A stretch of 64,000 bases of DNA from Candidatus Poribacteria bacterium (lineage in GTDB: Bacteria; Poribacteria; WGA-4E; UBA9662). The position numbers and the translations under genes were made by a program. The DNA lies in the NCBI GenBank assembly GCA_036339735.1, contig JAYZAL010000006.1, positions 1 to 64,000 on the forward strand, written 5' to 3'. Each line of letters opens with the position of its first letter. Positions within the stretch are counted from its first letter, which is position 1. Positions 2,644 to 56,755 of the stretch are shown piece by piece. The notes below the pieces were generated by a model that did no database searches, was not told the origin of the DNA, and saw only the letters and a list, made by a program, of their open reading frames with translations.

Positions 2644-3570
2644 CTAGTTGGACGGCGATGACTCCAATAACCACCGACGCATAACTTGGGTTACCCGCTG
2701 ATGTGCTTCTTGTTGTATAAAATGTCCAATATTTGGAATGGTTACTAAGGTCAACTCATTATCAATCCAATCCCAAGTATTGTTGAGTGTACTTGGTAAT
2801 AAAGCTTGATCATCTAAGCCGTGAAACATCAAAACAGGGCACTTTACTTTGATTACTGGTGTCCGTAGATCGACAGTGTATGGGGGGCGTGGGTAATTTG
2901 CTTTATAGTAGTTCAGCATAGATTCAAAGTCAGAACGTTTAAAGGCTGTGATATACTTCTGTCGGTCATTTGGGTTACTTACCCATTCAGCTAACCTTTC
3001 TGCCGTCAGGTAATTATGTGCATCTGGCTGCTGAAAGTTACGTGCATATTGACTATTTGCTTGCTGCTCTGGGTTATTACTTAATTCACGTCTCAAACCT
3101 CTTAGATGAGGTAAGTTACAGATCACTAAACGTTCAACTAAATCAGGTTCATTCATAGCTAAGGACCAAGCTATCGCTCCACCCCAGTCATGCCCAACTA
3201 CAATGGCCTTTTGATCAACTGGACCGGATAACTGACGTATCACTGACACAATATCTTGAACCAAGATGTCCATAGAATACTGGTCAACACCTTTTGGTTT
3301 ATCGCTTAAATTATAACCTCGTAAATCAACAGCAACTGTTCGAAAGTGATTTGATAATCCCTTCATCTGATATCTCCAAGTATACCAGAAGTCTGGAAAG
3401 CCGTGAATCATTATAACTAGCGGGCCTGTTCCCAAAGATGCATAGTGAATTTTGACGCCATTATTTTTGACATAACCGTGCTCTACCTGGGATTCAACAC
3501 CCTTCACACTAGCAGTAGTAGTTAGTAAAAATGAGCTGATGAGAGTTAAGGTAGCTAAAGAGATTTTCAT
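2644..3570 (-). CDS. Alpha/beta hydrolase, epoxide-hydrolase-like, with signal peptide
   Basis: HGFP oxyanion motif, [14 protein letters not shown] nucleophile Asp, GHF catalytic His; hydrophobic N-terminus. Confidence 0.8.
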
Positions 3571-3861
3571 GATTCACTTTAAAGTTAATTTGTTGTCTAC
3601 TTATTATGATATGGTAGAATCCAGCAGACTAGCAATAGGAAATTATTAGTCTATATCTCCATAGTTTTGTTATACTTAACAAGCTTTTGAAAGTAACATA
3701 AAACTGTCAAGTAACATTGAAAGAAAAATAGACTGGTTAGACTTGAGAATAAAATATTGTACCAAACTGATAATCAAAGCAGTAACACAATATAATCCAC
3801 TAGTACTCTTCCATTCGTAAAAATCCCATCAATCCAGATTAATAGATAGCCTGTTGGTTCA

Positions 3862-5298
3862 ATGGTGAAACTCTCAACTTATCAAAAATCTGCCCTGCAA
3901 CAACTACCATCTCTGGAGCAAATTCTATCTAGTGATGAATTCGTTGATTTGCTAACCAAATTTGACCGAAGACTTATTGTGTTGATCCTACGTCAGGTAA
4001 TAAATGAAGTTAGACAAAAAATTTTAAATAACGAAACTAACTTACCTGAATTGAATGAATATGTAATATGGGTGACGCAAAAAATACAGTCTGAGCTCAG
4101 TTCATCGATACAAACCGTAGTCAACTGTACTGGAACTATCACTCATACTAATTTGGGTCGAAGTTTATTACCTGCGGAGGCAATTGAGAACCTCCAGCGT
4201 GTCGCTAGCCATTATGTTGATTTGGAATATGACTTGGTTACAGGAAAGAGAGGACATCGCGACCGAATTACTGGAAACCTATTGCAACAATTAACTGAGT
4301 GCCAAGATTCAACTGTTGTTAATAATAATGCCGCCGCTGTTTTGCTTGTCCTAACAACATTAGCAGCAGGTAAAGAAGTTATTATTTCAAGGGGTGAGCT
4401 AGTCGAAATTGGCGGCTCTTTCCGAATCCCAGAAGTCATGTCTGAAAGTGGTGCAATTCTGAGAGAAGTAGGTACTACAAATCGAACACATTTAATAGAC
4501 TACCAAGAAGCTATTAACGAGAATACAGGACTACTACTGAAAGTTCATCCTAGTAACTATGCAGTAGTTGGATTTCACTCCGTACCACCGATTGAGGACT
4601 TGGCTGAATTGGGTCATGAGTACCAAATTCCAGTTTTTGAAGATTTAGGTAGTGGATCTTTAATTGATTTAACAGATTTCGGATTGCCTGCCGAGCCTGT
4701 GGTGAAAGACCGATTAGCTAAGGGGGTTGATATTTTGACTTTTAGTGGTGACAAGCTATTGGGTGGCCCACAGGCGGGTCTAATCATAGGAAAAAAAGAT
4801 CTTATAACTCGAGTTCGTCAGCATTCTCTGATGCGTGCACTGAGAGTAGATAAACTAACATTATCCGCTTTGGAAGCAACACTTCGTCAATACCTTAATC
4901 CCAAGGATCTACTTAACCGTCTTCCGATGTTATGGCGATACACACGTTCAATATCTGAGCTGAGGATTTTAGCTGATCACTTGTCCAATAGATTATCGGT
5001 AATTTTGGCTGATCATGCCAAAATCGAGGTTGTAAAATCTTCGGCTCAAATTGGCAGCGGTTCATTACCAATTGACCAATTGTCCAGCATTGCTGTAGTC
5101 ATTCATTCGAAGCAGTTTTCGACAACCCAAATCGCTAAATTATTTCGTTTGTCAGGAATAATAGGCCGTATACGAGATGATCAGCTATGGCTAGATGTAA
5201 GATCAGTTACCGAAGTGGAGTTAAGTACCATCCTAAACGCAGCCAAAGAAGTTGTTAAGCAATTAGATGGTAATAACAATGCTAGTAATGTTAGTTAG
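3862..5298 (+). CDS. selA: L-seryl-tRNA(Sec) selenium transferase
   Basis: VNCTGTITHTNLGRS, VVNNNAAAV, SRGELVEIGGSFRIP, EVGTTNRT, FSGDKLLGGPQAG, RALRVDK. Confidence 0.95.
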   Translation: MVKLSTYQKSALQQLPSLEQILSSDEFVDLLTKFDRRLIVLILRQVINEVRQKILNNETNLPELNEYVIWVTQKIQSELSSSIQTVVNCTGTITHTNLGRSLLPAEAIENLQRVASHYVDLEYDLVTGKRGHRDRITGNLLQQLTECQDSTVVNNNAAAVLLVLTTLAAGKEVIISRGELVEIGGSFRIPEVMSESGAILREVGTTNRTHLIDYQEAINENTGLLLKVHPSNYAVVGFHSVPPIEDLAELGHEYQIPVFEDLGSGSLIDLTDFGLPAEPVVKDRLAKGVDILTFSGDKLLGGPQAGLIIGKKDLITRVRQHSLMRALRVDKLTLSALEATLRQYLNPKDLLNRLPMLWRYTRSISELRILADHLSNRLSVILADHAKIEVVKSSAQIGSGSLPIDQLSSIAVVIHSKQFSTTQIAKLFRLSGIIGRIRDDQLWLDVRSVTEVELSTILNAAKEVVKQLDGNNNASNVS

Positions 5299-5540
5299 AT
5301 GATCTTATTATTGCTTAATAAGTTTTAAGTGTTTTTATAAGCAATGGTTGTCCCATTCGACCCAATTCCAATTTTTTCAAATACTCTGAATTCATAAATT
5401 TGACGAGTAGGTAATCAGGGATTCGTTGCTCTTAGACAATTGATAAGTTTCAAAAACACAGCGAAAGAGAAACTCAGATTCGGTTTTGCCGAATGTCTAA
5501 TCACATATTTTATTTAATAGATTCAACGAAGGAACTAACT

Positions 5541-45171: not shown

Positions 45172-46338
45172 CTAGTTATCTTTTGTAAAACGATATTCCA
45201 GTTCAGTTAACTGGCCGCTATCTACGCTTACAATTTGATGTCGAGTACCCATTTTCTCATGCCAAAACTCAAGCTCGAATTGGCCATCAGGCAAGCCTGC
45301 AATTTCGAATTGACCATCTTCCTGAGTTACAGTAAAGAACGGATGATCAATAACATGCACCCAACACTTCATCCAAGGATGAATATCACATTTGACAAAA
45401 AATAATTCTTCCGCATCGTAAGTGCGATCAATGGGGTTTCCCCCAACATTGACTGCTTTGTTGAAGGCCGGATTAGCTTCAGATAACGTATGTACGTTGT
45501 GTGGGACAACATCGGAGTTTTTGTAGCTGATCGTTTGGCCTTTTTGAATAGCCAGAACATGTGGCTTGTAAACACACCCATATTGGTCAACTTCAGCGAC
45601 GTCCGAGGGCGCAGTATAGCTAGCTGTCGTTGGTAAACCTCTTCGGATACGCACTAAAATGTTCGCGATAGAATTGTCATTACCCAGAACTAAAGTTTCC
45701 GACTTCGGGTTACCACCGTGGATATCCAAACAACCGGGAGTAGATCCCATATCTACATCTTTAATCTTTGGTATTGGTCCATCCCACAATACTTTCCCTC
45801 GAATAATCCCACTACCATTATTTTGGGTTGCTGTAACCTGAAATACATCACCGTCATGAGCTTCACCGTCATGAGCTTCACCGTCATGAGCTTCACCGTG
45901 ATAGCTAGATTCTTTTATTTTGGCGATAGCTTCCTCATTTGCTGCTTGTACTGCTAGCGACGGTTGGCCAAGTGTATCTGCTTCGCCAGTCAAGGTTAAA
46001 AAAATCATAATAGTAAAAAATAGGACCGTTAGTCCTAAGAAACCATAGATAACTTTACGCTCATCGTTAAGGTGCATAAAAACCAAAGCCACTAATGATG
46101 CCTTGACCGAAGCAATCAGCAAACCAAGAAATATAGCCACGGGAAAGGGAACATCCAAGTAGGATGCGGCTACCGTAAAAACGGTCAAGACTCCTAGTGC
46201 CAAAAAAACGAGTATATACGATTTAACATGTACATGGTCATGGACTTTTTCGTCAAGGAAAGCATTAATTGCCTCGTCCGTCATTTCCGGATGTTTCGCT
46301 TTCAAATAATCAAACTCTTCATTTCGGCTAGTGGTCAT
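45172..46338 (-). CDS. Fusion of cytochrome c oxidase subunit IV-like membrane domain and cupredoxin/carboxypeptidase-regulatory-like domain
   Basis: ATG 46338 after GGAGGG. N-domain YILVFLAL..LT...IASVKASLVALVFMHL with 3 TM. C-domain DQYGCVYKPH, NSDVVPHNVH, CDIHPWM, DGQFEIAGLPDG, WHE. Confidence 0.8.
   Translation of the reverse strand: MTTSRNEEFDYLKAKHPEMTDEAINAFLDEKVHDHVHVKSYILVFLALGVLTVFTVAASYLDVPFPVAIFLGLLIASVKASLVALVFMHLNDERKVIYGFLGLTVLFFTIMIFLTLTGEADTLGQPSLAVQAANEEAIAKIKESSYHGEAHDGEAHDGEAHDGDVFQVTATQNNGSGIIRGKVLWDGPIPKIKDVDMGSTPGCLDIHGGNPKSETLVLGNDNSIANILVRIRRGLPTTASYTAPSDVAEVDQYGCVYKPHVLAIQKGQTISYKNSDVVPHNVHTLSEANPAFNKAVNVGGNPIDRTYDAEELFFVKCDIHPWMKCWVHVIDHPFFTVTQEDGQFEIAGLPDGQFELEFWHEKMGTRHQIVSVDSGQLTELEYRFTKDN
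45848..45900. repeat. 15-bp tandem repeat (about 3.5 copies) encoding GEAHD
   Basis: TCACCGTCATGAGCT x3 plus TCACCGTG. Confidence 0.95.
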
Positions 46339-47668
46339 GTTTATCCCTCCAAGAAGCCTCCAATTTCCGCAAATTGGTTGCACCAATGTTACCAGCCAAA
46401 ACAGTCTGATCATGCGGCTTTAGCTTCCCAAAGCTGTTAAATACGATCCCGAGTAAGGAAATTACAAAGAGGCTAATAATCAGGAAACTAATTCCGATAC
46501 TGAGTGTCGAATCGGTTCGGAAAAATAGCCCCCAGATTCCAGTCCCTAAAATGTTAAAAAACGAAATCGGAATAAGATACTTCCAGCAAAGATTCATTAA
46601 CTGATCAACCCGAAGACGTGGCAAGGTCCATCGAACCCACATCATTACAAAGACTAACAAGAATGTTTTACCTACAATAATGAATAAGCCTGGAACAAAC
46701 TGATCTTCATCTATTATTCCCTGCCATCCTCCTAAAAATAAGGTGGCTGCAATAGCACAAACAGCAAACACGTTAGCATATTCAGCGATAAAGAAAACTG
46801 CGAAGCGCATACCACTATACTCTGTATGAAACCCCGCAACTAACTCGGACTCGGCTTCCGGCAAGTCGAAAGGCGTTCGATTGACTTCGGCAATCGCAGA
46901 TAAAAAATAGACAAAAAATGCCAAAAAAGTGAAGGGAGACCGAAAAATCATCCAATCGAGAATGGATCCTTTTATCTCGATTCCGAGGAAAGTAGCAATG
47001 GCTTCTCCCCCCGAAAACACGCCATTTTGAGCTGCAACAATGCCTTCCATACTCATAGTCTGTGTCATCATAATTACAGTCAAAATGGATAAACCAATTG
47101 GTATTTCATAACTAACCATCTGCGCTGCTGAGCGCATGGCGCCGAATAGAGACCACTTGCTGTTCGAAGCCCAACCGGCCATGATTACACCAATTGCAAT
47201 GACAGAAGAAATAGAAATAACATAAAAAATGCCAATATTGAGGTCGCTAACGAGGACACTCTGGCTGAATGGGATAGCAGCAAATACAGCAAATGAACAA
47301 GCAAAAATCAGATAAGGAGCAAAGCGGAATAGAAGTTTGTCGGCTTGCGGCGGAATTAGGTCTTCCTTGAAAAGAAGCTTTACCCCATCTGCTAGCGTTT
47401 GCAATAATCCCCAAGGCCCTACTCTCATTGGGCCTGTTCGATCCTGAATCCATGCAGAAACTTTTCTTTCCATTAACACAAGGACTAAAGGTATGAGTGG
47501 CACCACGGCCACAAAAATTGCGGCCACAGCAGACATAACCAAGACAGGACCGAGCCAACTGGGCAAAAAACTGAGGCTATGGCTAGCAAAATCCTCAGCC
47601 CAATTACTATTTCCACTCTCAACTACAGCTGACTCTATTGATATGAAATTTTTAGCTAATGCTACCAT
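46328..47668 (-). CDS. nuoH: NADH-quinone oxidoreductase subunit H
   Basis: ERKVSAWIQDRTGP, ADGVKLLFKED, AQMVSYE, NRTPFDLPEAESELVAG, PRLRVDQLM. Confidence 0.97.
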   Translation of the reverse strand: MVALAKNFISIESAVVESGNSNWAEDFASHSLSFLPSWLGPVLVMSAVAAIFVAVVPLIPLVLVLMERKVSAWIQDRTGPMRVGPWGLLQTLADGVKLLFKEDLIPPQADKLLFRFAPYLIFACSFAVFAAIPFSQSVLVSDLNIGIFYVISISSVIAIGVIMAGWASNSKWSLFGAMRSAAQMVSYEIPIGLSILTVIMMTQTMSMEGIVAAQNGVFSGGEAIATFLGIEIKGSILDWMIFRSPFTFLAFFVYFLSAIAEVNRTPFDLPEAESELVAGFHTEYSGMRFAVFFIAEYANVFAVCAIAATLFLGGWQGIIDEDQFVPGLFIIVGKTFLLVFVMMWVRWTLPRLRVDQLMNLCWKYLIPISFFNILGTGIWGLFFRTDSTLSIGISFLIISLFVISLLGIVFNSFGKLKPHDQTVLAGNIGATNLRKLEASWRDKHDH

Positions 47669-47711
47669 TTGTATACTTTACTGAACTATAAATTAAATAT
47701 TAAATTAGGAA

Positions 47712-48899
47712 CTATCGATCTACTTCACCCATGACAATATCAATGCTACCAATAATCGCAATGATATCCGCCAACATTAACCCCCGACTTAATTCTTGCA
47801 AGGCACTCAGTGCTGCGAAACAAGGCGATTTAACTTTGACGCGAACAGGTTTCACACTTCCATCGCTGATGATGTAGAAACCTAACTCCCCACGAGGTGC
47901 TTCACTACGTGAATAAACCGCACCAGCGGGCGGGCGAATTGCCTTCATATTGGCCATGATCGGACCTTCTGGCCACTCTTTATCCAGCAGTTGACGTAAA
48001 ATCTTGATTGACTCCTTCATTTCGTCCATTCTTACCATATAACGGTTCCAGCAATCACCAAGAACAATACCTAGGTCAGGGATATCTTCGCCAATGGGAA
48101 CATCAAAGTCGAACTGATCATATATCGAGTAAGTTTCATCCTTTCTCAAATCCCACTTTCGCCCTGCACCTCTAAGATTTGGGCCACTTGCACCATAACT
48201 AATGACCATTTCTTCGTCCATCACAGCTACACCTGCGGTCCGTTCGATGAAAATCTTATTGTTGGTCAAAAGTGCATTGTACTCATCTATCTTTGGCTCA
48301 AAATAATCCAAAAACTCGCTCACATCATCCAAAAAGTCAGGAGGCAAATCTCGAGAAACACCTCCTACTCGGATGTAGTTGTAAGTCAGTCTAGCACCAC
48401 ATAATTTTTCAAAAAGAAAAAGGATTTTTTCACGATCACGGAAAGCGTAGAGAAAAGGAGTAAATGCACCGATATCCATTCCATAGGTGCCAAAGGCAAG
48501 GAGATGGCTAGCAATACGATTTAGCTCACCAGCCAAAACACGGAGGTATTCAGCACGCTCGGGTACACCGTCGAATTTGCTTGGGTCTACAGACAGCATC
48601 TTTTCAACTGCCATACTGAAACCCCAATTCTGGTTCATAGCGGCAATATAATCGAGCCGGTCAGTAAAAGGAACAATTTGGTCGTAAGACAAATTCTCAG
48701 CATGTTTTTCAAAACACCGGTGAAGGTAGCCAATATGAGGAATCGCGTCTCGAACGACTTCCCCATCTAACCTCAGCTCTAATTTCAGCACACCATGCGT
48801 GCTAGGGTGCTGAGGCCCCATGCTAACGATCATTTCATCGGAAAAAGGCTTGAGTTCTACAAAACGAGTTTCTTCTGGGGCTGTGCTTTGGGCTAACAT
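47712..48899 (-). CDS. nuoD: NADH-quinone oxidoreductase subunit D
   Basis: MGPQHPSTHGVL, GYLHR, DRLDY, ELNRIASH, EAPRGELG, DIVMGEVDR. Confidence 0.97.
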   Translation of the reverse strand: MLAQSTAPEETRFVELKPFSDEMIVSMGPQHPSTHGVLKLELRLDGEVVRDAIPHIGYLHRCFEKHAENLSYDQIVPFTDRLDYIAAMNQNWGFSMAVEKMLSVDPSKFDGVPERAEYLRVLAGELNRIASHLLAFGTYGMDIGAFTPFLYAFRDREKILFLFEKLCGARLTYNYIRVGGVSRDLPPDFLDDVSEFLDYFEPKIDEYNALLTNNKIFIERTAGVAVMDEEMVISYGASGPNLRGAGRKWDLRKDETYSIYDQFDFDVPIGEDIPDLGIVLGDCWNRYMVRMDEMKESIKILRQLLDKEWPEGPIMANMKAIRPPAGAVYSRSEAPRGELGFYIISDGSVKPVRVKVKSPCFAALSALQELSRGLMLADIIAIIGSIDIVMGEVDR

Positions 48900-48925
48900 A
48901 GTGCGAACACCTCAAGTAAAGCTAT

Positions 48926-49411
48926 CTAGTAAGGGACTTTCATCCCACGATACATATCTGGTTCCTGGTAATCTTTACGCATAGGATAACCTTCCCAATC
49001 ATCTGGCAACAAAATCCGCCTCAAATCACTATGGTTATCAAAAACCACACCATACAAGTCATAGATTTCTCTCTCGTGCCAATTGGCTCCCTTCCATAAG
49101 TGTTCGACGGTGGAAAGGCGAGGATCTTCCTTTGGAACAATTGCTTTTATGACTACCTGGTGAATATGAACCATCGATTGGAAGTGGTAAACGATTTCCA
49201 TTGTGTCATCTTCTGAAGAATGATCAACCCCACTTAAGCATGATAGAGAATCAAAAGCGAGATCTGGATCATGTCGTAGAAATTCACACACAGGGACTAC
49301 TTTAGAAGAAGGTATAATAATAAAAGGTTCTAATGTACCTGTGCCGTCAAGAACAATACCATCAACACCAAATTTGTTCTGCAGGCGCTCTAAAACTTCA
49401 TTCGTGGTCAC
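48926..49411 (-). CDS. nuoC: NADH-quinone oxidoreductase subunit C
   Basis: GVD, ANWHEREIYDLYG, DLRRILL, GYPMRKDY. Confidence 0.95.
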   Translation of the reverse strand: MTTNEVLERLQNKFGVDGIVLDGTGTLEPFIIIPSSKVVPVCEFLRHDPDLAFDSLSCLSGVDHSSEDDTMEIVYHFQSMVHIHQVVIKAIVPKEDPRLSTVEHLWKGANWHEREIYDLYGVVFDNHSDLRRILLPDDWEGYPMRKDYQEPDMYRGMKVPY

Positions 49412-49421
49412 CGTATCACCT

Positions 49422-49967
49422 TCAGGCTGTATGCTTTTTTTGGAGAAGTTTGCGTAAGAATGGAACAGTGGGTGGACCTTCAGTGGTCTGAAGACGAATC
49501 TTTTCTTGTAGCTTAAGCAATCCCTCTATTACGGCCTCAGGACGTGGAGGACAACCAGGTACGTATACATCAACTGGTATTACTCTGTCGACACCCTTCA
49601 GCACATGATAGCCGTGTTGCCAGTACGGTCCACCGCTAGTAGCACAACTACCCATTGAGATTACATACTTTGGTTCTGCCATTTGCTCGTAGAGCCGAAT
49701 AACTCTAGTTGCCATCTTTAACGTAACAGTACCAGAAACAATGATCAGATCAGACTGGCGAGGGGTTGCACGTGGCACACCAGCTCCAAACCGATCGAGA
49801 TCATAGTTAGAAGCAGCAGTTGCCATAAATTCAATGGCGCAGCAGGCAAGCCCAAATGTCATCGGCCATAAAGCTGACGATCTTGCCCAATTGGCTACCG
49901 CATCTATAGAGGTAACAATTAAGTTCTTATCAAAATCTTCGTTGGACAAATTAGATATATCTTTCAT
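49422..49967 (-). CDS. nuoB: NADH-quinone oxidoreductase subunit B
   Basis: [34 protein letters not shown]. Confidence 0.97.
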
Positions 49968-50407
49968 GATTGTCTCTGAGCCTCCAGAGCCGAAGATGGT
50001 ACGTTTTGATTTCCAAGATCATTATTATCATTCGGAACAGATTGTATTTTGCGAACCCACTCTAGATCCCCCTTAGCCCAAACATAAGCTAGACCGACCA
50101 AAAGAATAAGAATAAAAATTAGCATTTCAACAAAAGCTAACATTCCAATCTGGCGATAAACCACAGCCCAAGGGAAAAGAAAAACGGTTTCGACATCAAA
50201 AATCAAAAAAATCAGTGCGATGACGTAAAAACGAGTATTGAACTTGATACGGGTATCCCCGATAGGTTCTTCTCCACACTCGTAGGCGATGGATTTCTCT
50301 TGGGTAAAGAGACGTGTCTGAGCAACACTCGAGATGAGAATATTGAGCAAAATAAAAACAGTTCCAGCAACTAAGAAAACAAGTATATTGGCGAAGTCAA
50401 ACAGCAT
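49964..50407 (-). CDS. nuoA: NADH-quinone oxidoreductase subunit A
   Basis: [40 protein letters not shown] 50407 after GAGG. Confidence 0.95.
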
Positions 50408-50472
50408 GGAGCACAAACCTCAATGAGTTATCCTAATCCGATTCATCGCGTAGGCCGCCCTGAATCCGGCAA

Positions 50473-50501
50473 ATTATAGCCCAAATCAGCTATCTTTGCA
50501 A
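50473..50501 (-). promoter_or_regulatory. Sigma70-type promoter of the nuo operon
   Basis: TTGCAA-17 nt-TATAAT on the minus strand. Confidence 0.7.
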
Positions 50502-50530: not shown

Positions 50531-51778
50531 TTAATCAAATTCACCACCACATTTCCTGCACAAAATGTAAAATTGTATATCTTCCTTCAGAGCATACTGG
50601 ATCATTAGCTCAACAGCTTCATCTGGCAGATCTTCATCGCATTTGGGACAACGATAAAGAGAACGGTTATTGTCATAGGGTATCTGTTCAACTTTACCAG
50701 TAAAATCCTGCCAAAAAGTAAATTCCCAGGGCAACTCATTTTTTGTTTTAACAGAAATCTCATAGGCATGCCTAATAAAAGTCTGGCAGTCAGCGAAAGA
50801 GATAGTGGAAAAAAATTGATTAGTAAGTGCATTCAACATCAAAAAAGCCTGAAGTTCAACGAAGTGTGTCCATCGATTAACCGAATTTCCATCAGCCCAG
50901 CAACGAATATAGCGGGTCTCGATAGGATTGAAAACAAACGTTTTTCCGTCTCTGTTTTCTGCATACTCGCCATCATATTGGCTATCAAAAATAGTGATCT
51001 CTTCACCACTAAATTTATTTTCTAAAGAAACTGCAATCTTGTTATGATGATAAGTTCGACCATCAGCCCAGTAATGCCAAAGCTTGATAGTATTAATCAA
51101 CATCGGTTGACCGAGGTCCACCGTTACCTGAGTAGCGTCAAGTAAATCTTCAGGTTTGGCGCTTTCACCTGTGTCGCCATCTGTCAAATTCCAGCGACCT
51201 GCATAGTCGCTATTGGTTTCAACCCGCTTGTTTAAGGCTAAATTTTCTGTTTTTAACCTGTTGTTCGTAAGTGGCTGGCCAAAATCATTTGAAGCCATAT
51301 AGCCACTCAGGTATTGACTGTACAACTCACTAATAGGTAGAGACAATTGGTAGGACTTTGCTACACTTTGGCAGCAACGATCCAATTCTGCAGAACTCAG
51401 GTTAGCGACGACAAAACAATCTCTGACACCTCGTTTCCAAAAATCAAGTAAGAGAAACATGGCACGTAAATTCCCATCAGGTCGACGACGAATGATCACC
51501 GCTATTCGAAGACCGGTATCTGTAGAATAACTAATTAAACAACTGTGGAGTGGGTAATCAGGAAATGGGCCAAATTTACTCTGTTTGATCAGAGGTTTGT
51601 AGTGTTTGCAGTTGGCATCACAACCAGGGATTTTGGCCCGTTTGGCCTGACAACAACTAGGGCATATAATGACACCGTTTAGTGCAGGACAAATACGCTT
51701 GGCATTATCAGATCTACAGGTCCGGCAACGCTGTTTTTTTGGTCGTCTTCGGCGATACCCAAGCCTCAATCTTGCCAT
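50531..51778 (-). CDS. Hypothetical protein: Cys-rich N-terminus, inserted discoidin (F5/8 type C)-like domain, C-terminal Zn ribbon
   Basis: CRTC..CPAL..ICPSCC..C...C; NLALNK...LTDGD...VTVDLG...RYIR...FVELQAF; CPKC...CRKC. Confidence 0.7.
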   Translation of the reverse strand: MARLRLGYRRRRPKKQRCRTCRSDNAKRICPALNGVIICPSCCQAKRAKIPGCDANCKHYKPLIKQSKFGPFPDYPLHSCLISYSTDTGLRIAVIIRRRPDGNLRAMFLLLDFWKRGVRDCFVVANLSSAELDRCCQSVAKSYQLSLPISELYSQYLSGYMASNDFGQPLTNNRLKTENLALNKRVETNSDYAGRWNLTDGDTGESAKPEDLLDATQVTVDLGQPMLINTIKLWHYWADGRTYHHNKIAVSLENKFSGEEITIFDSQYDGEYAENRDGKTFVFNPIETRYIRCWADGNSVNRWTHFVELQAFLMLNALTNQFFSTISFADCQTFIRHAYEISVKTKNELPWEFTFWQDFTGKVEQIPYDNNRSLYRCPKCDEDLPDEAVELMIQYALKEDIQFYILCRKCGGEFD

Positions 51779-51811
51779 AATAATTCCAGTAAAGTTTGAT
51801 CAATCGCGTCC

Positions 51812-53851
51812 TTATGACTCTCGACGAGTTAGGCTCGACAAATACTCAGAGATTTTATTAGCAATCTTTTCAGCATCTACATCAGCAAAATCGAATAATT
51901 CTTTCAGCATCGGTGATATAGCTCCAGTATCAAGTAGGTTGTTGGCCAACCGACCCATTGTGCTACGATTAACTCCATCCTTCTGCCCTTCACTACCCCC
52001 CATATCCAGAATCTTGATCGAGTCAATTTTTTCCACTGGCCGCATCAATTGTTCAACTATGTCAGCACTTCCATCAATTAATTCCATGATTGCTTCTTGG
52101 ACTAGAACTCGCTGTTCGGCTACGTTCCGAGCCTCCATATGAGCCATTTCACCTTGAGCTTTAGCCGTGGCCTCAGCCAAAACCGCATCTGCTAACCGTT
52201 CAATAGGTTGCGCTTGAGCTTCTGCACCAATGACGGCTACTTCTCTTTGCCATTCCGCTTCTTTGGTTTGTTGGACTGCAATGACACCAATTTCGGCTTC
52301 GGCCTTACCGGCCTCCGCAACTAACTGATTTTTTTGCGCATTGGCAGTATCAACTTGCTTACCTGCAACAGCAATATTTCGATCTTCATCAATTAGCTGA
52401 AGCGATAATTCTTGCCCAATTCGGGATTGCTCTACCTCTAAAACCTTGTCGATTTCAGTTAATTCAACCTGCCGGTTTTGGTTGATCTGAGCAGTTTCGA
52501 TGACTAGGTTTTTCTCGATCTCACGCTCTTGAACTGCTTGCTCTTGAGAGAATTTACTAGTTTCAACAGACAGAGCCTTTTCAATGTCTCTTAAAGCTAC
52601 ACCTTCTTCTTGACCAATTTTGGCTCGTTCAATCTCCAACAACTTACCTTGTTCTCGAATACCTACTTGCTCTTCCTGATCAAAACGCTGTATTTCAACA
52701 GTCAAGTCTTTTTCAATTTCAGCTATTTGAACCGCCTTCATTTGTTCAATCTGTTCTGTTTCTACCATCAAGTTCTTTTCAATTTCTCTAATTTGAACAG
52801 TTTGCTCTTGTTCGACTTTAGCTAATTCGACTTCTTTAATTTTTTCAATTTCGCGTTCTTCGATGGCTTGTTCTTGTGCTACTCGGGCCTTTTCAACCTC
52901 TTGCTTCATCAAAAACTCACGTTCTTGAACCTCCTGCTCCATCTCAAACTGAAATTTCATAGTGTCAGCTTCTCTTTCAGCAGCATATATGGCGATATTT
53001 TTCTGCTGATCAGATTCTGCCCAAGCCTGATCTTGCTCTGCTTCTAATTTTTGAATTCGCGCATCAACTATAATTTTTACGATTGCGACTTCTTTTTCTT
53101 GCTCAATTTGTTCTGTTTCTTTAGCTTGTTCAGCTGTGATTTCGGTAATAGTTCGAATGCCACGTGCATCGAATTGATTTTCTTCTTTATAAGTTTCAAG
53201 AGGGGTTTGATCAACCCGAATAATCGAAACAGCTTCTAATTTGAGACCATTCTCATTTTTTAGGTTTTCACCAACAGCACGATCAACTTTTTCCGCGAAT
53301 TCGACTCGTTTCTGTAACAGTTCGGTTATTTCACTTTCAGCGGCAACACTTCTCAACGCACCTTCCAGTTTCGGCTCAATCAGCTCTCGGATTGTTTCAG
53401 GAGTCATTGACTTGTCTCCTAGTGCTTGAGCTGCTCGAAGAATATCTTCTTCATTAGGTTCGACCTGTAGATAAAAAACTGCTTCTACATTGGCTCGGTT
53501 AAAGTCAAGTGTAATAAAAGCATCTTCACCTTCACGTAAAACCTCCAACACCATTGTGTTTAGAGAGATTTCTTTAACTTCGTGGATTATAGTATTCAGC
53601 CAAAGACCTGACGTTATGCTAATCTTTTCACCACCACCACCAGTTCGGACCAGAGACATGTCAGCTTTTGGCTTTTTGTAGCGAACTACAAAAGCCAAAA
53701 AGACACCACTCAGTACAAAAACCAACACAAAGGATATTGACACCCAACGGGCAAGTCCCACCAAGTTGTACTGGTCTGTTTGTTGGTAAGCAAGAAAACC
53801 GACCAAAACAGCTACAACAAAAAGAGTTATGACAAGAACTATTAGCCGCAT
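51812..53851 (-). CDS. Flotillin/SPFH (YqiK-like) membrane scaffold with extended coiled coil
   Basis: Two N-terminal TM helices; LVRTGGGG, AAQALG, ALRSVAA, NGLKLEAVSI, NQFDARG; C-terminal PVEKIDSIKILDMGG. Confidence 0.9.
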   Translation of the reverse strand: MRLIVLVITLFVVAVLVGFLAYQQTDQYNLVGLARWVSISFVLVFVLSGVFLAFVVRYKKPKADMSLVRTGGGGEKISITSGLWLNTIIHEVKEISLNTMVLEVLREGEDAFITLDFNRANVEAVFYLQVEPNEEDILRAAQALGDKSMTPETIRELIEPKLEGALRSVAAESEITELLQKRVEFAEKVDRAVGENLKNENGLKLEAVSIIRVDQTPLETYKEENQFDARGIRTITEITAEQAKETEQIEQEKEVAIVKIIVDARIQKLEAEQDQAWAESDQQKNIAIYAAEREADTMKFQFEMEQEVQEREFLMKQEVEKARVAQEQAIEEREIEKIKEVELAKVEQEQTVQIREIEKNLMVETEQIEQMKAVQIAEIEKDLTVEIQRFDQEEQVGIREQGKLLEIERAKIGQEEGVALRDIEKALSVETSKFSQEQAVQEREIEKNLVIETAQINQNRQVELTEIDKVLEVEQSRIGQELSLQLIDEDRNIAVAGKQVDTANAQKNQLVAEAGKAEAEIGVIAVQQTKEAEWQREVAVIGAEAQAQPIERLADAVLAEATAKAQGEMAHMEARNVAEQRVLVQEAIMELIDGSADIVEQLMRPVEKIDSIKILDMGGSEGQKDGVNRSTMGRLANNLLDTGAISPMLKELFDFADVDAEKIANKISEYLSSLTRRES

Positions 53852-53882
53852 AGGTTGCTCCTAAAGAAATAGGGAAATACTT

Positions 53883-55298
53883 TCAAAAACGCGATTTCCG
53901 CCAATCAGCTCCCTTGTTAAGACGATATCTACCTTTCAATGGTTGTCGTGGTGAAGACTGCCAAGCCAAGTTGGCCAAATAACAGAGGGCATTCTCAATC
54001 AAGGTTTTTGCCAGAGTGGCTTTGGCTGCATCCCGAGTGTCAATGGCAAAAGCTACATAATGTCCATCACCCCATCCCAACTGGATGCCAACAGCATCTT
54101 GATTGTCTCGACGAACAGCTAACTTAGTGTAAGCGGGGTCATCTGTTACCCAGTGATCATCAGTAATTAGGGCATTCACATCAACTTTATTCGGCCAAGT
54201 AAACAAGCCTGTTCTTTTTCCATCTTCCGTGATATTAACATTGATATCAGAGGAACTGACAACCTTGATTGGATACTGATCGACTGGTAACCAGTTGCCT
54301 TTCCACGAGGACTCATGGGTATGAACACCATCGGGGGGGACGATATTGTCATCCATCGCTGAAGCCCAAACGACTCCGCCTTTTTGAACGAAATCTTTGA
54401 TATCTTCTTCTGCATCTTCGACTAAATACTGGCCATCGTGGGCAGGAGCATTCCAAGTAAACCATACGATATCGTATTCCGAAAGCAAAACACTGGAAAG
54501 TTTAACCGCATTATCAGGGTTGCCATAGTTGTCTGGGTTTGAGTTAATATGTACGGTTTGGTAATCGAATTTGTGCCCTTCAATATCAGTTAACGCCTCT
54601 AAAATTGCAGGTTCATTTGTTCGACTATCACCAACGACAACTAGTACTTGAAAAGCCCCTACTGGTACAATTTTCATAGATGAAATGGAGTTAGAAAAGG
54701 ATTGGGGTGCCATGTTCAAGTTTCTTAGCTCTAGTTTATATTCGCGACTGTTAAGGGGCAGAACCATACGTCTACCTTCAAAATTCGGATGCTCATAGCA
54801 AACGGCACGACAACCACTGAAGGGAAAGTTAGGGCCCCTTTGAATTCGAATCGAGGAAATAGAATTGTTGATCCCAATATCCTTTAGGTCGCTCACATCT
54901 CGTAAAATAACAGCTTTCTGACCTCGGTAATCAGCCTCGCCGTACACTTCGATAATCATAGGGATAGCCCCGTATTCGGGCGGCGTGGGGTGTGCTGCTG
55001 GGCTGAAACTGACCGAAGAAATTACATCTCCAAAATTATACGGGATTTGATGGATATTGGGGTAGTACCCAGGCGCTAAAACTAATCTTCGGCCGACATA
55101 ATTGATATGTTCGTGAAATATAGCTTTATAGTTGGGAGCAGCCGAAAAGGCTGGTCCTTTATAGATCTTAATTGACGAAATTAAGTCTTGTGCACCGATG
55201 TCTTCTGTATTCGGAACTGAGTCAAGAATGGTGACTTTACGGCCATTGTAGTTAACATGTTGAAACACCTCAATGACTAGTCGTGGAGAAAGAGCCAT
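53883..55298 (-). CDS. Beta/gamma-crystallin domain protein with C-terminal class-I GATase/ThuA-like domain
   Basis: Four Greek-key motifs: FQHVNYNG/DLISSIKI, HEHINYVG/DVISSVSF, EADYRG/NNSISSIRI, YEHPNFEG/NSISSMKI. C-domain LSEYDIVWF...IKDFVQKGG. Confidence 0.8.
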   Translation of the reverse strand: MALSPRLVIEVFQHVNYNGRKVTILDSVPNTEDIGAQDLISSIKIYKGPAFSAAPNYKAIFHEHINYVGRRLVLAPGYYPNIHQIPYNFGDVISSVSFSPAAHPTPPEYGAIPMIIEVYGEADYRGQKAVILRDVSDLKDIGINNSISSIRIQRGPNFPFSGCRAVCYEHPNFEGRRMVLPLNSREYKLELRNLNMAPQSFSNSISSMKIVPVGAFQVLVVVGDSRTNEPAILEALTDIEGHKFDYQTVHINSNPDNYGNPDNAVKLSSVLLSEYDIVWFTWNAPAHDGQYLVEDAEEDIKDFVQKGGVVWASAMDDNIVPPDGVHTHESSWKGNWLPVDQYPIKVVSSSDINVNITEDGKRTGLFTWPNKVDVNALITDDHWVTDDPAYTKLAVRRDNQDAVGIQLGWGDGHYVAFAIDTRDAAKATLAKTLIENALCYLANLAWQSSPRQPLKGRYRLNKGADWRKSRF

Positions 55299-55302
55299 AA
55301 GG

Positions 55303-56694
55303 TCAGTTGATATCTCTTAGGGCTCGGGTAGCCAAATCAGCGCGCCGGGACTGAAATTCTCTATCCGAGACTCGCCCTCCTCGCATCACATTTGTTTGGT
55401 GGTACATGAATTCCGTTGCATCCATTTTTCTCTTAAAAAGACGAAAATACTCAAACCGTGTCAGGGTAGGAGGTATGTTACCCGGGCATAATGTGTGCAT
55501 TCCAATCTGAACAGGATTTCCCATTCCAACGTTGGTTTGACCGCAACTGACCCATTTAGTACCATCTGAGCTTGCATAACCCAAGAATTGATTGCCGCGC
55601 CTCTCGAGCCTAAGATAGAGCTCACGTACATTACGTAAGCCAGGGCCACGGCCTACTAATGAGTATTGCCGATTAACATGTCTTTCAAACCGAACATCTC
55701 CCCTAAAACCATGCGGTCCTGATGTTTTTTCTAACCGAACAAAAGCGTTAGGGCTTTTCCATACTACAAGTCCACCATGCTCACGCAAATCTGGAGAGAC
55801 TCGAAGACGGCACTCGATAGCAAAATCGCCCTCCACCTCCATCAACAAACGAGGTGCATCCATGTCGCCACCCTGACCAGGTGGTGAACCATGCCATAAA
55901 TCTTGGCCTGGTTCTGCACGCATTTCTAGGTAGCCTTGCCTCTCAGACCAGGATCCACCACCACCGGGATCTACCCATTTCCATTCAGGCCGCATGTCAT
56001 TACCGATGAACTCATCATCGAATACCAGTTCGGTAAATTCAGAAGAAGATGACCACCCCTCAATCTTAACCGAAGATATCATATCAGCAAAATTTTGGGG
56101 TAAAACATGAAGGTTTGGAATTTCTTTTTTATACTCAGAAGGTTCCATTCTTATGCTAAGCTTGGCTCCTTCAAAGTCAATATGTTCAAAGAAGTGGATA
56201 TCGGTTCCATAAGAAGGGAAGTCAGGACCTTTAAAGATTTTGATCGAAGAAATGCTATCATGGATTCCAAGATCTCCAGTATGGGCAATATCTCGCAGGA
56301 TTGTTATCTTACGCCCCCCGTAATCAACATGTTCATAACACTCGACAACAACAGGAACAGTTCCCCATTCTGGGCCAGTTGTTTCTAGCATTGAACCAAA
56401 ACTAATTGAGGAAATACTGTCTGGGAAATTGTAAATAACATCATGTAAATTAGGATAGAAACCTGGGCCTAAAGCCAACTTCTTACCTTGAAAACCACGA
56501 TGTTGATGAAAAATAGCTTTATAGTTAGGGCTGGACCGAAACCCAGGCCCTTTATAAACTTTGACAGAAGAGATATTGTCTTGAAACCCAATTAGCGTTG
56601 TAAATTCCACGGGCTCAAAAACACAAGCGCGTCGGCCACCGAAATTAACATGTTCAAAAACTTCAGCAATGAGTCGAGGAATTACGGCCGGCAT
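55303..56694 (-). CDS. Beta/gamma-crystallin domain protein with C-terminal ConA-like/DUF1349 domain
   Basis: FEHVNFGG/DNISSVKV, HRGFQG/DSISSIS, YEHVDYGG/DSISSIKI, FEHIDFEG/DMISSVKI. C-domain DDEF...DLW...APRLL..VEGDF...GGLVV...YLRLERRGNQF..YASSDG..W. Confidence 0.8.
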   Translation of the reverse strand: MPAVIPRLIAEVFEHVNFGGRRACVFEPVEFTTLIGFQDNISSVKVYKGPGFRSSPNYKAIFHQHRGFQGKKLALGPGFYPNLHDVIYNFPDSISSISFGSMLETTGPEWGTVPVVVECYEHVDYGGRKITILRDIAHTGDLGIHDSISSIKIFKGPDFPSYGTDIHFFEHIDFEGAKLSIRMEPSEYKKEIPNLHVLPQNFADMISSVKIEGWSSSSEFTELVFDDEFIGNDMRPEWKWVDPGGGGSWSERQGYLEMRAEPGQDLWHGSPPGQGGDMDAPRLLMEVEGDFAIECRLRVSPDLREHGGLVVWKSPNAFVRLEKTSGPHGFRGDVRFERHVNRQYSLVGRGPGLRNVRELYLRLERRGNQFLGYASSDGTKWVSCGQTNVGMGNPVQIGMHTLCPGNIPPTLTRFEYFRLFKRKMDATEFMYHQTNVMRGGRVSDREFQSRRADLATRALRDIN

Positions 56695-56726
56695 TTGTAC
56701 CTTTTAGGACAATCAGAATCATGCCA

Positions 56727-56755
56727 ATCCTATCATTTTACCCCTCAAATGTCAA
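56727..56755 (-). promoter_or_regulatory. Sigma70-type promoter of the crystallin-flotillin operon
   Basis: TTGACA-17 nt-(TGA)TAGGAT on the minus strand, about 30 nt upstream of ATG 56694. Confidence 0.7.

Follow-up and report, generated by a model that had tools for sequence, protein, structure and literature searches.

Four consecutive genes in a marine member of the Poribacteria probably encode a single, undescribed membrane-associated machine that recurs across almost the whole phylum, as judged from conserved gene order, shared inheritance and domain content. They lie in the window that we analysed, a stretch of 64,000 nucleotides (nt) from a Candidatus Poribacteria bacterium (NCBI GenBank assembly GCA_036339735.1; contig JAYZAL010000006.1, positions 1 to 64,000 of the forward strand), where they run along the minus strand in the order cryA (55303-56694; 463 amino acids, aa), cryB (53883-55298; 471 aa), a flotillin gene (51812-53851; 679 aa) and ZnX (50531-51778; 415 aa). 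The assembly (107 contigs, 4.3 Mb in total) has a completeness of 92%; the host is marine, the stretch being found in marine metatranscriptome runs. A first reading of the window from its letters alone, hereafter the original prediction, had proposed a tightly packed four-gene system here, and its coordinates and intergenic gaps of 4, 31 and 33 nt were reproduced from the list of open reading frames (ORFs). On balance, we lean towards a lineage-specific flotillin scaffold for which cryB, ZnX and (ancestrally) cryA would be dedicated soluble partners.

Flotillins and other SPFH proteins are present across every domain of life; what bacterial flotillins scaffold is largely open. Three soluble partners that are inherited and lost with a flotillin across a phylum represent a defined candidate set of clients or adaptors, and would include an unusual case of beta/gamma-crystallin domains working in the bacterial cytoplasm. 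The natural two-fold range in length of the flotillin (679-1386 aa) also offers a series for relating repeat number to the geometry of SPFH assemblies. Poribacteria are uncultivated and their internal compartments have long been debated, a setting to which a phylum-specific membrane scaffold would be relevant.

Gene order, transcription and co-inheritance

Related genomes supplied 20 loci centred on flotillin matches, 17 of them with an orthologous flotillin (56-97% identity) and three with a paralogous one (31-35%). At all 17 orthologous loci, which are spread over families f1, f2 and f4, cryB lies directly upstream and ZnX directly downstream of the flotillin gene on the same strand; none of the three paralogous loci carries cryB or ZnX as a neighbour. 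cryA adjoins cryB at five of the 17, all from f1 (the window’s own family), and was not found beside cryB at the eight f2 loci and five of the f4 loci fetched. Downstream of the module, nuoA/nuoB are present at nine of the 17 loci (f1 and part of f4) and absent at all eight f2 loci, so the module is independent of nuo.

Fifteen further loci, centred on cryB, came from distant f4 genera, from other families of the class and from the two deepest families of the phylum. Here cryA precedes cryB at 13 of the 15, and the flotillin gene follows cryB at 13, with one more locus cut at a contig end and one (L040) carrying no flotillin. Where the contig was long enough and ZnX was linked, a short ZnX follows the flotillin gene (L032, L036), as ZnX also does at the f4 loci L043 and L044; at L037-L039 a holB-like gene takes the ZnX place. 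Because the order cryA-cryB-flotillin is found in the deepest lineages, the four-gene order of the window appears ancestral, with cryA lost later in f2 and part of f4. Flanking genes change across these deepest splits, where nuo comes and goes and different genes lie upstream, while the order of the module stays. The original prediction had staked itself on synteny elsewhere, and synteny was found at every orthologous locus and in deep lineages; judged from gene order, the module dates to the common ancestor of the sampled Poribacteria genomes.

The phyletic pattern was established with profile scans over 176 genomes of the phylum, taking E <= 5e-59 as the ortholog level for cryB. By this measure, 144 genomes carry cryB, 16 show only crystallin-level matches (~1e-11 to 1e-16) and 16 show none, while ZnX is present in 142. 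Both genes occur together in 142 genomes, cryB alone in two and neither in 32. One of the two cryB-only genomes is 64% complete (G049) and the other (G132) has a cryB match of 5.2e-73, far weaker than those of its congeners. The 32 with neither gene are made up of family f3 (all 11 genomes), genus g8 (all 20) and genus g15 (its one genome). In a 41-genome sample, a flotillin query matched none of the 11 f3 genomes; three of the seven sampled g8 genomes gave matches, all far weaker than those of orthologues (31-35% identity at the two g8 loci fetched). Co-loss on about two occasions (f3; g8/g15 within f4) is suggestive and not statistical proof, yet it is the pattern expected of the parts of one machine.

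All four genes are represented in RNA libraries: Logan contigs from four libraries of four studies covered each of them at 95-100% identity. Among the records listed, the cryA/cryB junction was bridged by contigs in all four runs and the cryB/flotillin junction in one. Stretches for which no contig is listed, such as the flotillin/ZnX junction, are no evidence of a break in the transcript. Upstream of cryA lies a promoter-like site, TTGACA-17-TAGGAT with a TG-extended −10 element (56727-56755, minus strand; 10 of 12 consensus matches); a transcript would be expected to begin shortly past the −10 element (56727-56732). Both hexamers and the extended −10 element are invariant in all four aligned upstream regions, from four genomes of two genera, while the spacer and flanks diverge. 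Matches to the promoter pattern across the region (11) were not above the number expected by chance (14.3 +/- 3.7 in shuffles). Two RNA-library contigs (runs X1 and X3) extend from cryA over this site into the upstream gene, and the promoter may therefore not be the only start; read-through or DNA in the libraries may be at work. Thus, of the dedicated promoter originally proposed, the presence and conservation of the site stand, and its status as sole start is in doubt.

Domain composition of the four proteins

The flotillin comprises a two-helix hairpin (residues 1-60), an SPFH domain (72-250), about nine 22-residue repeats (~287-506) and a Flot C-terminal domain (543-653). The SPFH and C-terminal assignments rest on Pfam matches to Band_7 (PF01145; 47.9 bits, cut-off 23.6) and Flot (PF15975; 62.8 bits, cut-off 27). 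A hydropathy scan placed hydrophobic segments at residues 1-25 and 28-60, and this is the only protein of the module with N-terminal hydrophobic helices, in keeping with its earlier description as a flotillin with two transmembrane segments. RYKKPK follows the second helix, which under the positive-inside rule would place the bulk of the protein in the cytoplasm. Self-similarity at the protein level peaks at offsets of 22, 44, 66 and 88 residues, and Tandem Repeats Finder detected no DNA-level repeat in the gene. Orthologues measure 679, 687-689, 755-788, 942, 1029, 1116, 1208, 1289, 1384 and 1386 aa; the differences arise through the 22-residue repeats, and tblastn matches in the long forms recur at 264-nt steps. 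In a deep-branching genome (G041; locus L032, 2010-5563, minus strand), the flotillin is split into ORFs of 589 aa (anchor, SPFH domain and repeats) and 559 aa (repeats and Flot C-terminal domain), which could mean two genes in tandem, a frameshift or a faulty assembly.

The NCBIfam FloT equivalog model (NF058507) gave 34.1 bits against a cut-off of 700. A genome scan with Band_7 recovers this flotillin together with four other SPFH genes, arranged as two pairs on contigs C3 and C19, so the module flotillin appears to be a separate, specialised paralogue. The absence of an NfeD partner at the locus, noted in the original prediction, holds: the only PF01957 match of the genome lies on contig C38, with the window on C6, and the flotillin neighbours at the 17 orthologous loci are cryB and ZnX, none of them NfeD-like by position.

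Both crystallin proteins begin with a pair of beta/gamma-crystallin domains. In cryA these cover residues ~1-212 (Pfam Crystall, two stretches, 48.3 bits; cut-off 25) and are followed by a ConA-like DUF1349 domain at residues 248-419 (47.6 bits; cut-off 32.4), with the ConA-like family GH43_C2 matching at 27.4 bits; the crystallin plus ConA-like architecture first read from the letters is thereby backed by matches above cut-off. In cryB the crystallin pair occupies residues 1-212 (54663-55298, minus strand; Crystall, two stretches, 66.9 bits, cut-off 25), leaving ~260 C-terminal residues without a Pfam match. The crystallin parts of the two proteins are 47-49% identical, and cryA and cryB are the only Crystall-domain genes of the genome in a Pfam profile scan. 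The Greek-key signature of beta/gamma-crystallins, [YFW]xxxx[YFW]xG, is matched three times in each protein. Microbial beta/gamma-crystallins bind Ca2+ through the motif N/D-N/D-x-x-S/T-S; all eight Greek-key motifs of cryA and cryB keep x-[ND]-x-x-S-S, and one of the four in cryB, NNSISS at residue 144, is canonical, all 14 orthologues compared having a match to [ND][ND]xx[ST]S there. Over those 14 genomes, from three families, mean column identity across the whole of cryB is 79%. Against PDB sequences, the cryB profile found crystallins only, with weak matches to spherulin 3a, a Ciona crystallin and a microbial beta/gamma-crystallin family protein (E 0.008-0.01).

The C-terminal domain of cryB (residues 213-471; 53886-54662, minus strand), which ends in an invariant tail, AWQ.SPRQPL.GR, is rare, with 48 cluster representatives at E <= 0.001 among 1.84 billion. 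Using alignments of ThuA and DUF4159 built from genes of related genomes, hhalign matched it to ThuA with a probability of 65.8% (P 5.7e-5, 181 columns) and to DUF4159 with 41.3% (45 columns); for reference, the known pair DUF4159 and ThuA scored 29.1% and unrelated controls 0.1-0.4%. The Pfam models for ThuA and DUF4159, which have nine and six matches in this genome, many of them paralogues, do not detect cryB in genome scans, and a Pfam hmmscan of the domain was empty. Single distant homologues touch DUF4159, GH42M, LBP_M or GATase_3 (E 3e-4 to 8e-3). A search of the family against PDB sequences gave no significant match, the best being a ThuA-like protein (E 1.3); the ESM Atlas offered weak leads to DUF4960 and MJECL34 (scores 0.93-0.94, low shared-feature counts). 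Across 33 distant homologues the invariant positions (L, G, P, G and N) include no Cys, His or Glu, a pattern that speaks against a classical Cys-His-Glu triad. AlphaFold modelled cryB too poorly to place residues of this domain (mean predicted local distance difference test score, pLDDT, 57.9, with the C-terminal domain mostly <50). Profile comparison supports a class-I-amidotransferase-like fold for the domain at moderate confidence: of the architecture originally proposed for cryB, the crystallin half is firm and the glutamine-amidotransferase-like half is tenable at that level.

The same domain turns up in other settings. One deep-lineage cryB of 684 aa carries it twice. Stand-alone homologues (P0097-P0112; 250-280 aa) share an end motif, AVEPxxKLxxTWGxxK, with the KLxxTWGxxK part of which the invariant cryB tail aligns; one of them bears the name Poribacteria and a related cluster the name Vicinamibacterales. 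At L036 (genome G056), the product of the gene after the short ZnX (3014-5479, minus strand) is 821 aa long; it has hydrophobic stretches close to the N-terminus and a C-terminal domain like that of cryB (28% identity over ~180 residues, E 5e-7).

ZnX has two conserved ends and a variable middle. Its N-terminal part (51344-51736, minus strand) contains an eight-cysteine double zinc finger (residues ~15-59) and a domain of four strands plus a helix (~70-145); its C-terminal part (residues 323-415; 50534-50821, minus strand) contains a helical region and a CxxC...CxxC zinc ribbon. All 14 sequences aligned keep C18, C21, C30, C39, C42, C43, C53 and C57, and the same alignment shows C377, C380, C407 and C410 to be invariant; mean column identity over the same 14 genomes as for cryB is 56%. 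DUF7837 and zinc-ribbon Pfam matches to the C-terminal part fall below cut-offs. Between these Cys-rich regions sits an F5/8 type C (discoidin) domain (residues 190-309; 50852-51211, minus strand), with a marginal Pfam F5_F8_type_C match (29.5 bits; cut-off 28.2) and precomputed PF00754/PF22633 matches on close orthologues. The insert is lineage-specific: Laminin_G_3 takes its place in genus g2 (76.5 bits) and PF06439 in one cluster (P0245), unnamed inserts occur in proteins of ~432-446 aa and ~342 aa, and deep-lineage forms of 232-241 aa have none. By sequence comparison, then, discoidin is one of at least five interchangeable inserts, or is absent, and insert types follow genera and families among the sequences examined. 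The description of ZnX as a Cys-rich/discoidin protein is hence apt for its Cys-rich ends and, by a narrow score, for this genome’s insert, which is not a conserved part of the family.

An AlphaFold model of ZnX reached pLDDT values of 70-94 in the N-terminal part and 81-96 in the C-terminal part, with an unreliable middle domain (25-45). Foldseek found no match to it at E <= 0.001, and the best VIA match (Z 4.9) was too weak to name a fold. In the model, residues 15-59 weakly resemble a tandem B-box (Z 4.1, root-mean-square deviation 2.1 A over 44 residues) and zf-HIT (Z 3.6). The ZnX profile found nothing among PDB sequences, and its N-terminal part had no usable match in the ESM Atlas. Two RNA-library contigs contain backward joints within the module: one from run X1 goes back 407 nt in ZnX (50838-51244), with 10 extra letters between the two sides, and one from run X5, within the flotillin repeats, goes back 218 bases (52666 to 52449). 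Strain variation or chimeric contigs may explain such joints.

cryA and ZnX have no hydrophobic segments and cryB has a single weak internal one (residues 204-223) in the hydropathy scan. Upstream of the cryA, cryB and ZnX starts, the open frame extends just 3-7 codons, which excludes a hidden signal peptide. These two observations uphold the earlier statement that the three lack signal peptides, and, as far as sequence can indicate, hydrophobic N-termini being absent and space for earlier starts too small, they support a cytoplasmic location for all three partners.

Comparison with known systems and rival explanations

In the arrangement that we favour, the N-terminal hairpin would hold the flotillin in the inner membrane and leave most of the protein in the cytoplasm. 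By analogy with solved SPFH assemblies, its SPFH domain and the coiled coil of 22-residue repeats would let it oligomerise as a ring or dome at the cytoplasmic face. Its dedicated soluble partners or clients in the cytoplasm would be cryB, ZnX and, in lineages that have it there, cryA, standing in for the NfeD or YdjG/YdjH/PspA proteins found elsewhere. The paired crystallin domains might serve as rigid adaptors, possibly stabilised by Ca2+; the ThuA-like domain of cryB, the ConA-like domain of cryA and the exchangeable beta-sandwich insert of ZnX might bind a ligand such as a sugar or lipid head group; and contacts with proteins could come from the ZnX zinc fingers. Together they would make up a specialised membrane domain serving housekeeping cell biology and not a mobile defence island.

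Two kinds of bacterial operon offer the closest comparisons. Bacillus subtilis yuaF-floT and Escherichia coli yqiJ-yqiK are flotillin-NfeD operons, and the module shares with them an N-terminal anchor, an SPFH domain, a repeat-rich coiled coil and a Flot C-terminal domain in a small operon with dedicated partners. It differs in having no adjacent NfeD, in having crystallin and zinc-finger partners without membrane segments, and, relative to FloT itself, in its 34-bit score against the 700-bit equivalog cut-off and its roughly two-fold range in total length. The module also resembles B. subtilis pspA-ydjGHI (samGHI), as the original prediction had suggested, in that an SPFH gene stands with several genes for accessory proteins. 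According to the available text of PMC8581546 and PMC13713150, the pspA-ydjGHI proteins depend on one another for membrane localisation, and PMC8581546 describes the SPFH protein YdjI as soluble and its partners YdjG and YdjH as integral membrane proteins. Unlike that system, the module has its anchor on the flotillin and soluble partners, reversing the solubility logic; it has no adjacent PspA, and the genome has no PspA match at the Pfam cut-off. As to the zinc ribbon that the original prediction linked to this operon, the word ‘zinc’ is absent from the available text of PMC8581546, and Pfam gives no family common to ZnX and a YdjG-type protein, a comparison made between Pfam families and not with YdjG itself.

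A wider set of SPFH proteins—flotillin-1/2, HflK/C, prohibitin, stomatin and erlin—likewise combines an SPFH domain with a coiled coil, which in those proteins forms domed or barrel-shaped oligomers on membranes (available text of bioRxiv 10.1101/2025.04.21.649849), with 22 flotillin pairs forming a helical barrel (available text of bioRxiv 10.1101/2024.05.09.593390). The 22-residue (2 x 11) periodicity of the module flotillin would fit the wall of a helical barrel. Compared with eukaryotic flotillin-1/2 and other SPFH cages, its repeat number is far larger and more variable. Known clients of such cages are membrane proteases or channels and not soluble crystallin proteins. On the crystallin side, cryA and cryB share the double Greek-key domain of Protein S, spherulin 3a, M-crystallin and clostrillin, and carry x-[ND]-x-x-S-S motifs; unlike secreted microbial beta/gamma-crystallins, they are predicted to be cytoplasmic, are fused to ConA-like or ThuA-like domains and have one canonical motif in eight.

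Text searches of the literature found no paper on Poribacteria and flotillin, nor on a bacterial flotillin with beta/gamma-crystallins, which agrees with the original view that the combination had not been described; supplementary files, outside the scope of these searches, might list such genes. The literature match for Poribacteria and crystallin was discarded as irrelevant, being concerned with the crystallinity of polyethylene terephthalate. With flotillin-NfeD and pspA-ydjGHI operons the module has in common an SPFH scaffold whose partners are encoded in its operon; it departs from them in which partners these are, in its reversed solubility logic and in its cytoplasmic crystallins.

The original prediction put membrane repair first among its suggestions. 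In a Ca2+-triggered sensor or repair system for membrane damage, a breach in seawater would admit Ca2+; the cytoplasmic crystallin domains, on binding it, would change state and bring in or activate the flotillin and ZnX where the membrane is damaged. We regard this as possible, if doubtful. The host is marine, the eight Greek-key motifs keep x-[ND]-x-x-S-S with one of them canonical and conserved in all 14 orthologues compared, and B. subtilis YdjI/PspA provides an SPFH precedent in membrane-stress repair (available text of PMC8581546); since this 92%-complete genome has no PspA_IM30 match at the Pfam cut-off (best 27.9 bits, contig C36), another repair system might be expected. Yet seven of the eight motifs lack the first N/D, the locus has no effector of a known type (no PspA- or ESCRT-III-like gene is adjacent) and the promoter is sigma-70-like and not obviously a stress promoter. 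An unlikely though larger proposal is a protein-walled compartment: a flotillin cage on the cytoplasmic face of the inner membrane, filled or capped by Ca2+-binding crystallins and a zinc-finger adaptor with an exchangeable insert, its wall height set by a coiled coil of nine to ~41 22-residue repeats (~30-135 nm if a single straight helix). If true, Poribacteria would have a novel, phylum-specific type of bacterial organelle. It is improbable that the module organises a storage polymer, with the ConA-, ThuA- and lectin-like domains binding an internal polysaccharide (e.g. glycogen-like granules) that the flotillin tethers to the membrane. All three soluble proteins do carry folds that usually handle carbohydrate (DUF1349/GH43_C2; ThuA-like; F5/8-C, LamG or PF06439 inserts), and poribacterial cells have bipolar low-density granules that have been read as carbon reserves; the available text of the paper describing them (PMC5087111) mentions neither flotillin nor band 7 (0 occurrences). 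The case is circumstantial, no glycogen or polyhydroxyalkanoate genes lie in the conserved neighbourhood and the ZnX insert is absent in deep lineages. Discoidin-type domains, moreover, also bind phospholipids.

A role in defence, which the original prediction had entertained, is scarcely credible. With the ZnX insert as sensor and the flotillin as membrane effector, an anti-phage or conflict system could draw on the swapping of the ZnX middle domain among at least five types and on the confinement of the family to one phylum. The insert types, however, track genera and families, and the module behaves as a vertically inherited core feature: it is single-copy and near-universal (142-144 of 176 genomes), keeps a steady place (next to nuo in f1 and in part of f4), is highly conserved (cryB 79% column identity) and has no mobile-element genes among the ORFs examined, and PADLOC returned 0 families for all four proteins (E <= 0.01). 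It is likewise very improbable that the genes are merely neighbours by descent that act independently. Some lineages have an unlinked ZnX (on another contig or ~1 Mb away in G053 and G054), cryA was not found beside cryB at the f2 loci and most f4 loci fetched, and all genomes come from one phylum, so that synteny could partly reflect shared ancestry. Independent neighbours would nevertheless not be expected to keep their order over the deepest splits while flanking genes change, with gaps of 4-33 nt, nor to be lost together in f3 and g8/g15, where sampled f3 and g8 genomes also lack an orthologous flotillin; ZnX, even when unlinked, is retained in the same genomes.

These comparisons leave a flotillin scaffold with dedicated soluble partners as the explanation that we prefer, and several points weigh against it. 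The genomes are related and not independent, with co-loss resting on about two events; ZnX is not adjacent in some lineages and cryA is not beside cryB in many, so the stoichiometry of the unit is in doubt. DNA may be present in RNA libraries, and a single transcript cannot be demonstrated from contigs. Microbial beta/gamma-crystallins and lectin-like folds mostly function extracellularly, and the stand-alone relatives of the cryB C-terminal domain have signal-peptide-like N-termini, which makes a cytoplasmic role unusual. One Ca2+ motif in eight is fully canonical, the ZnX core has no recognisable fold and the cryB model is poor, so the roles given to these parts are guesses. Physical association, an oligomeric cage, Ca2+ binding, a ligand and a physiological role are what we infer from the genes. 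None of our analyses lent support to the Ca2+ and glycan responsiveness of the original prediction, nor to its suggested roles in membrane repair, defence or a compartment. A predicted complex of cryB and ZnX scored 0.01 against a mark of 0.32, which amounts to no verdict and carries no weight either way.

Flanking genes and minor observations

Upstream of cryA lie a nucleoside-hydrolase-like gene and a LarA-N-like gene. Downstream of ZnX, on the same strand, come nuoA-B-C-D-H, and a second promoter-like site, TTGCAA-17-TATAAT (50473-50501, minus strand), falls between ZnX and nuoA, marking a boundary outside the module. Among the contigs listed, none of those over nuoA reaches ZnX (they stop at 50413 and 50459), no more than a weak hint at this boundary.

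Locus L043 (6852-12992, plus strand), from the single-contig genome G060, has all four module genes in pieces. We considered joint decay of the module there and rejected it as evidence, since the neighbouring nuo genes are fragmented too, a nuoD-sized gene among them, so an artefact of assembly quality is more likely.

Named by eye, the nuo genes of the window (46328-50416, minus strand) are A, B, C and D in that order, followed by a gene for an H-like membrane subunit; E, F and G are not found between D and H, which suggests a short arrangement of the 11-subunit type. The 3′ end of the nuoH-like ORF (46328-47668) is overlapped by 86 nt by a further minus-strand ORF (45172-46413; 413 aa), whose product has a hydrophobic N-terminal region, a threefold HDGEA repeat and a long soluble C-terminal part.

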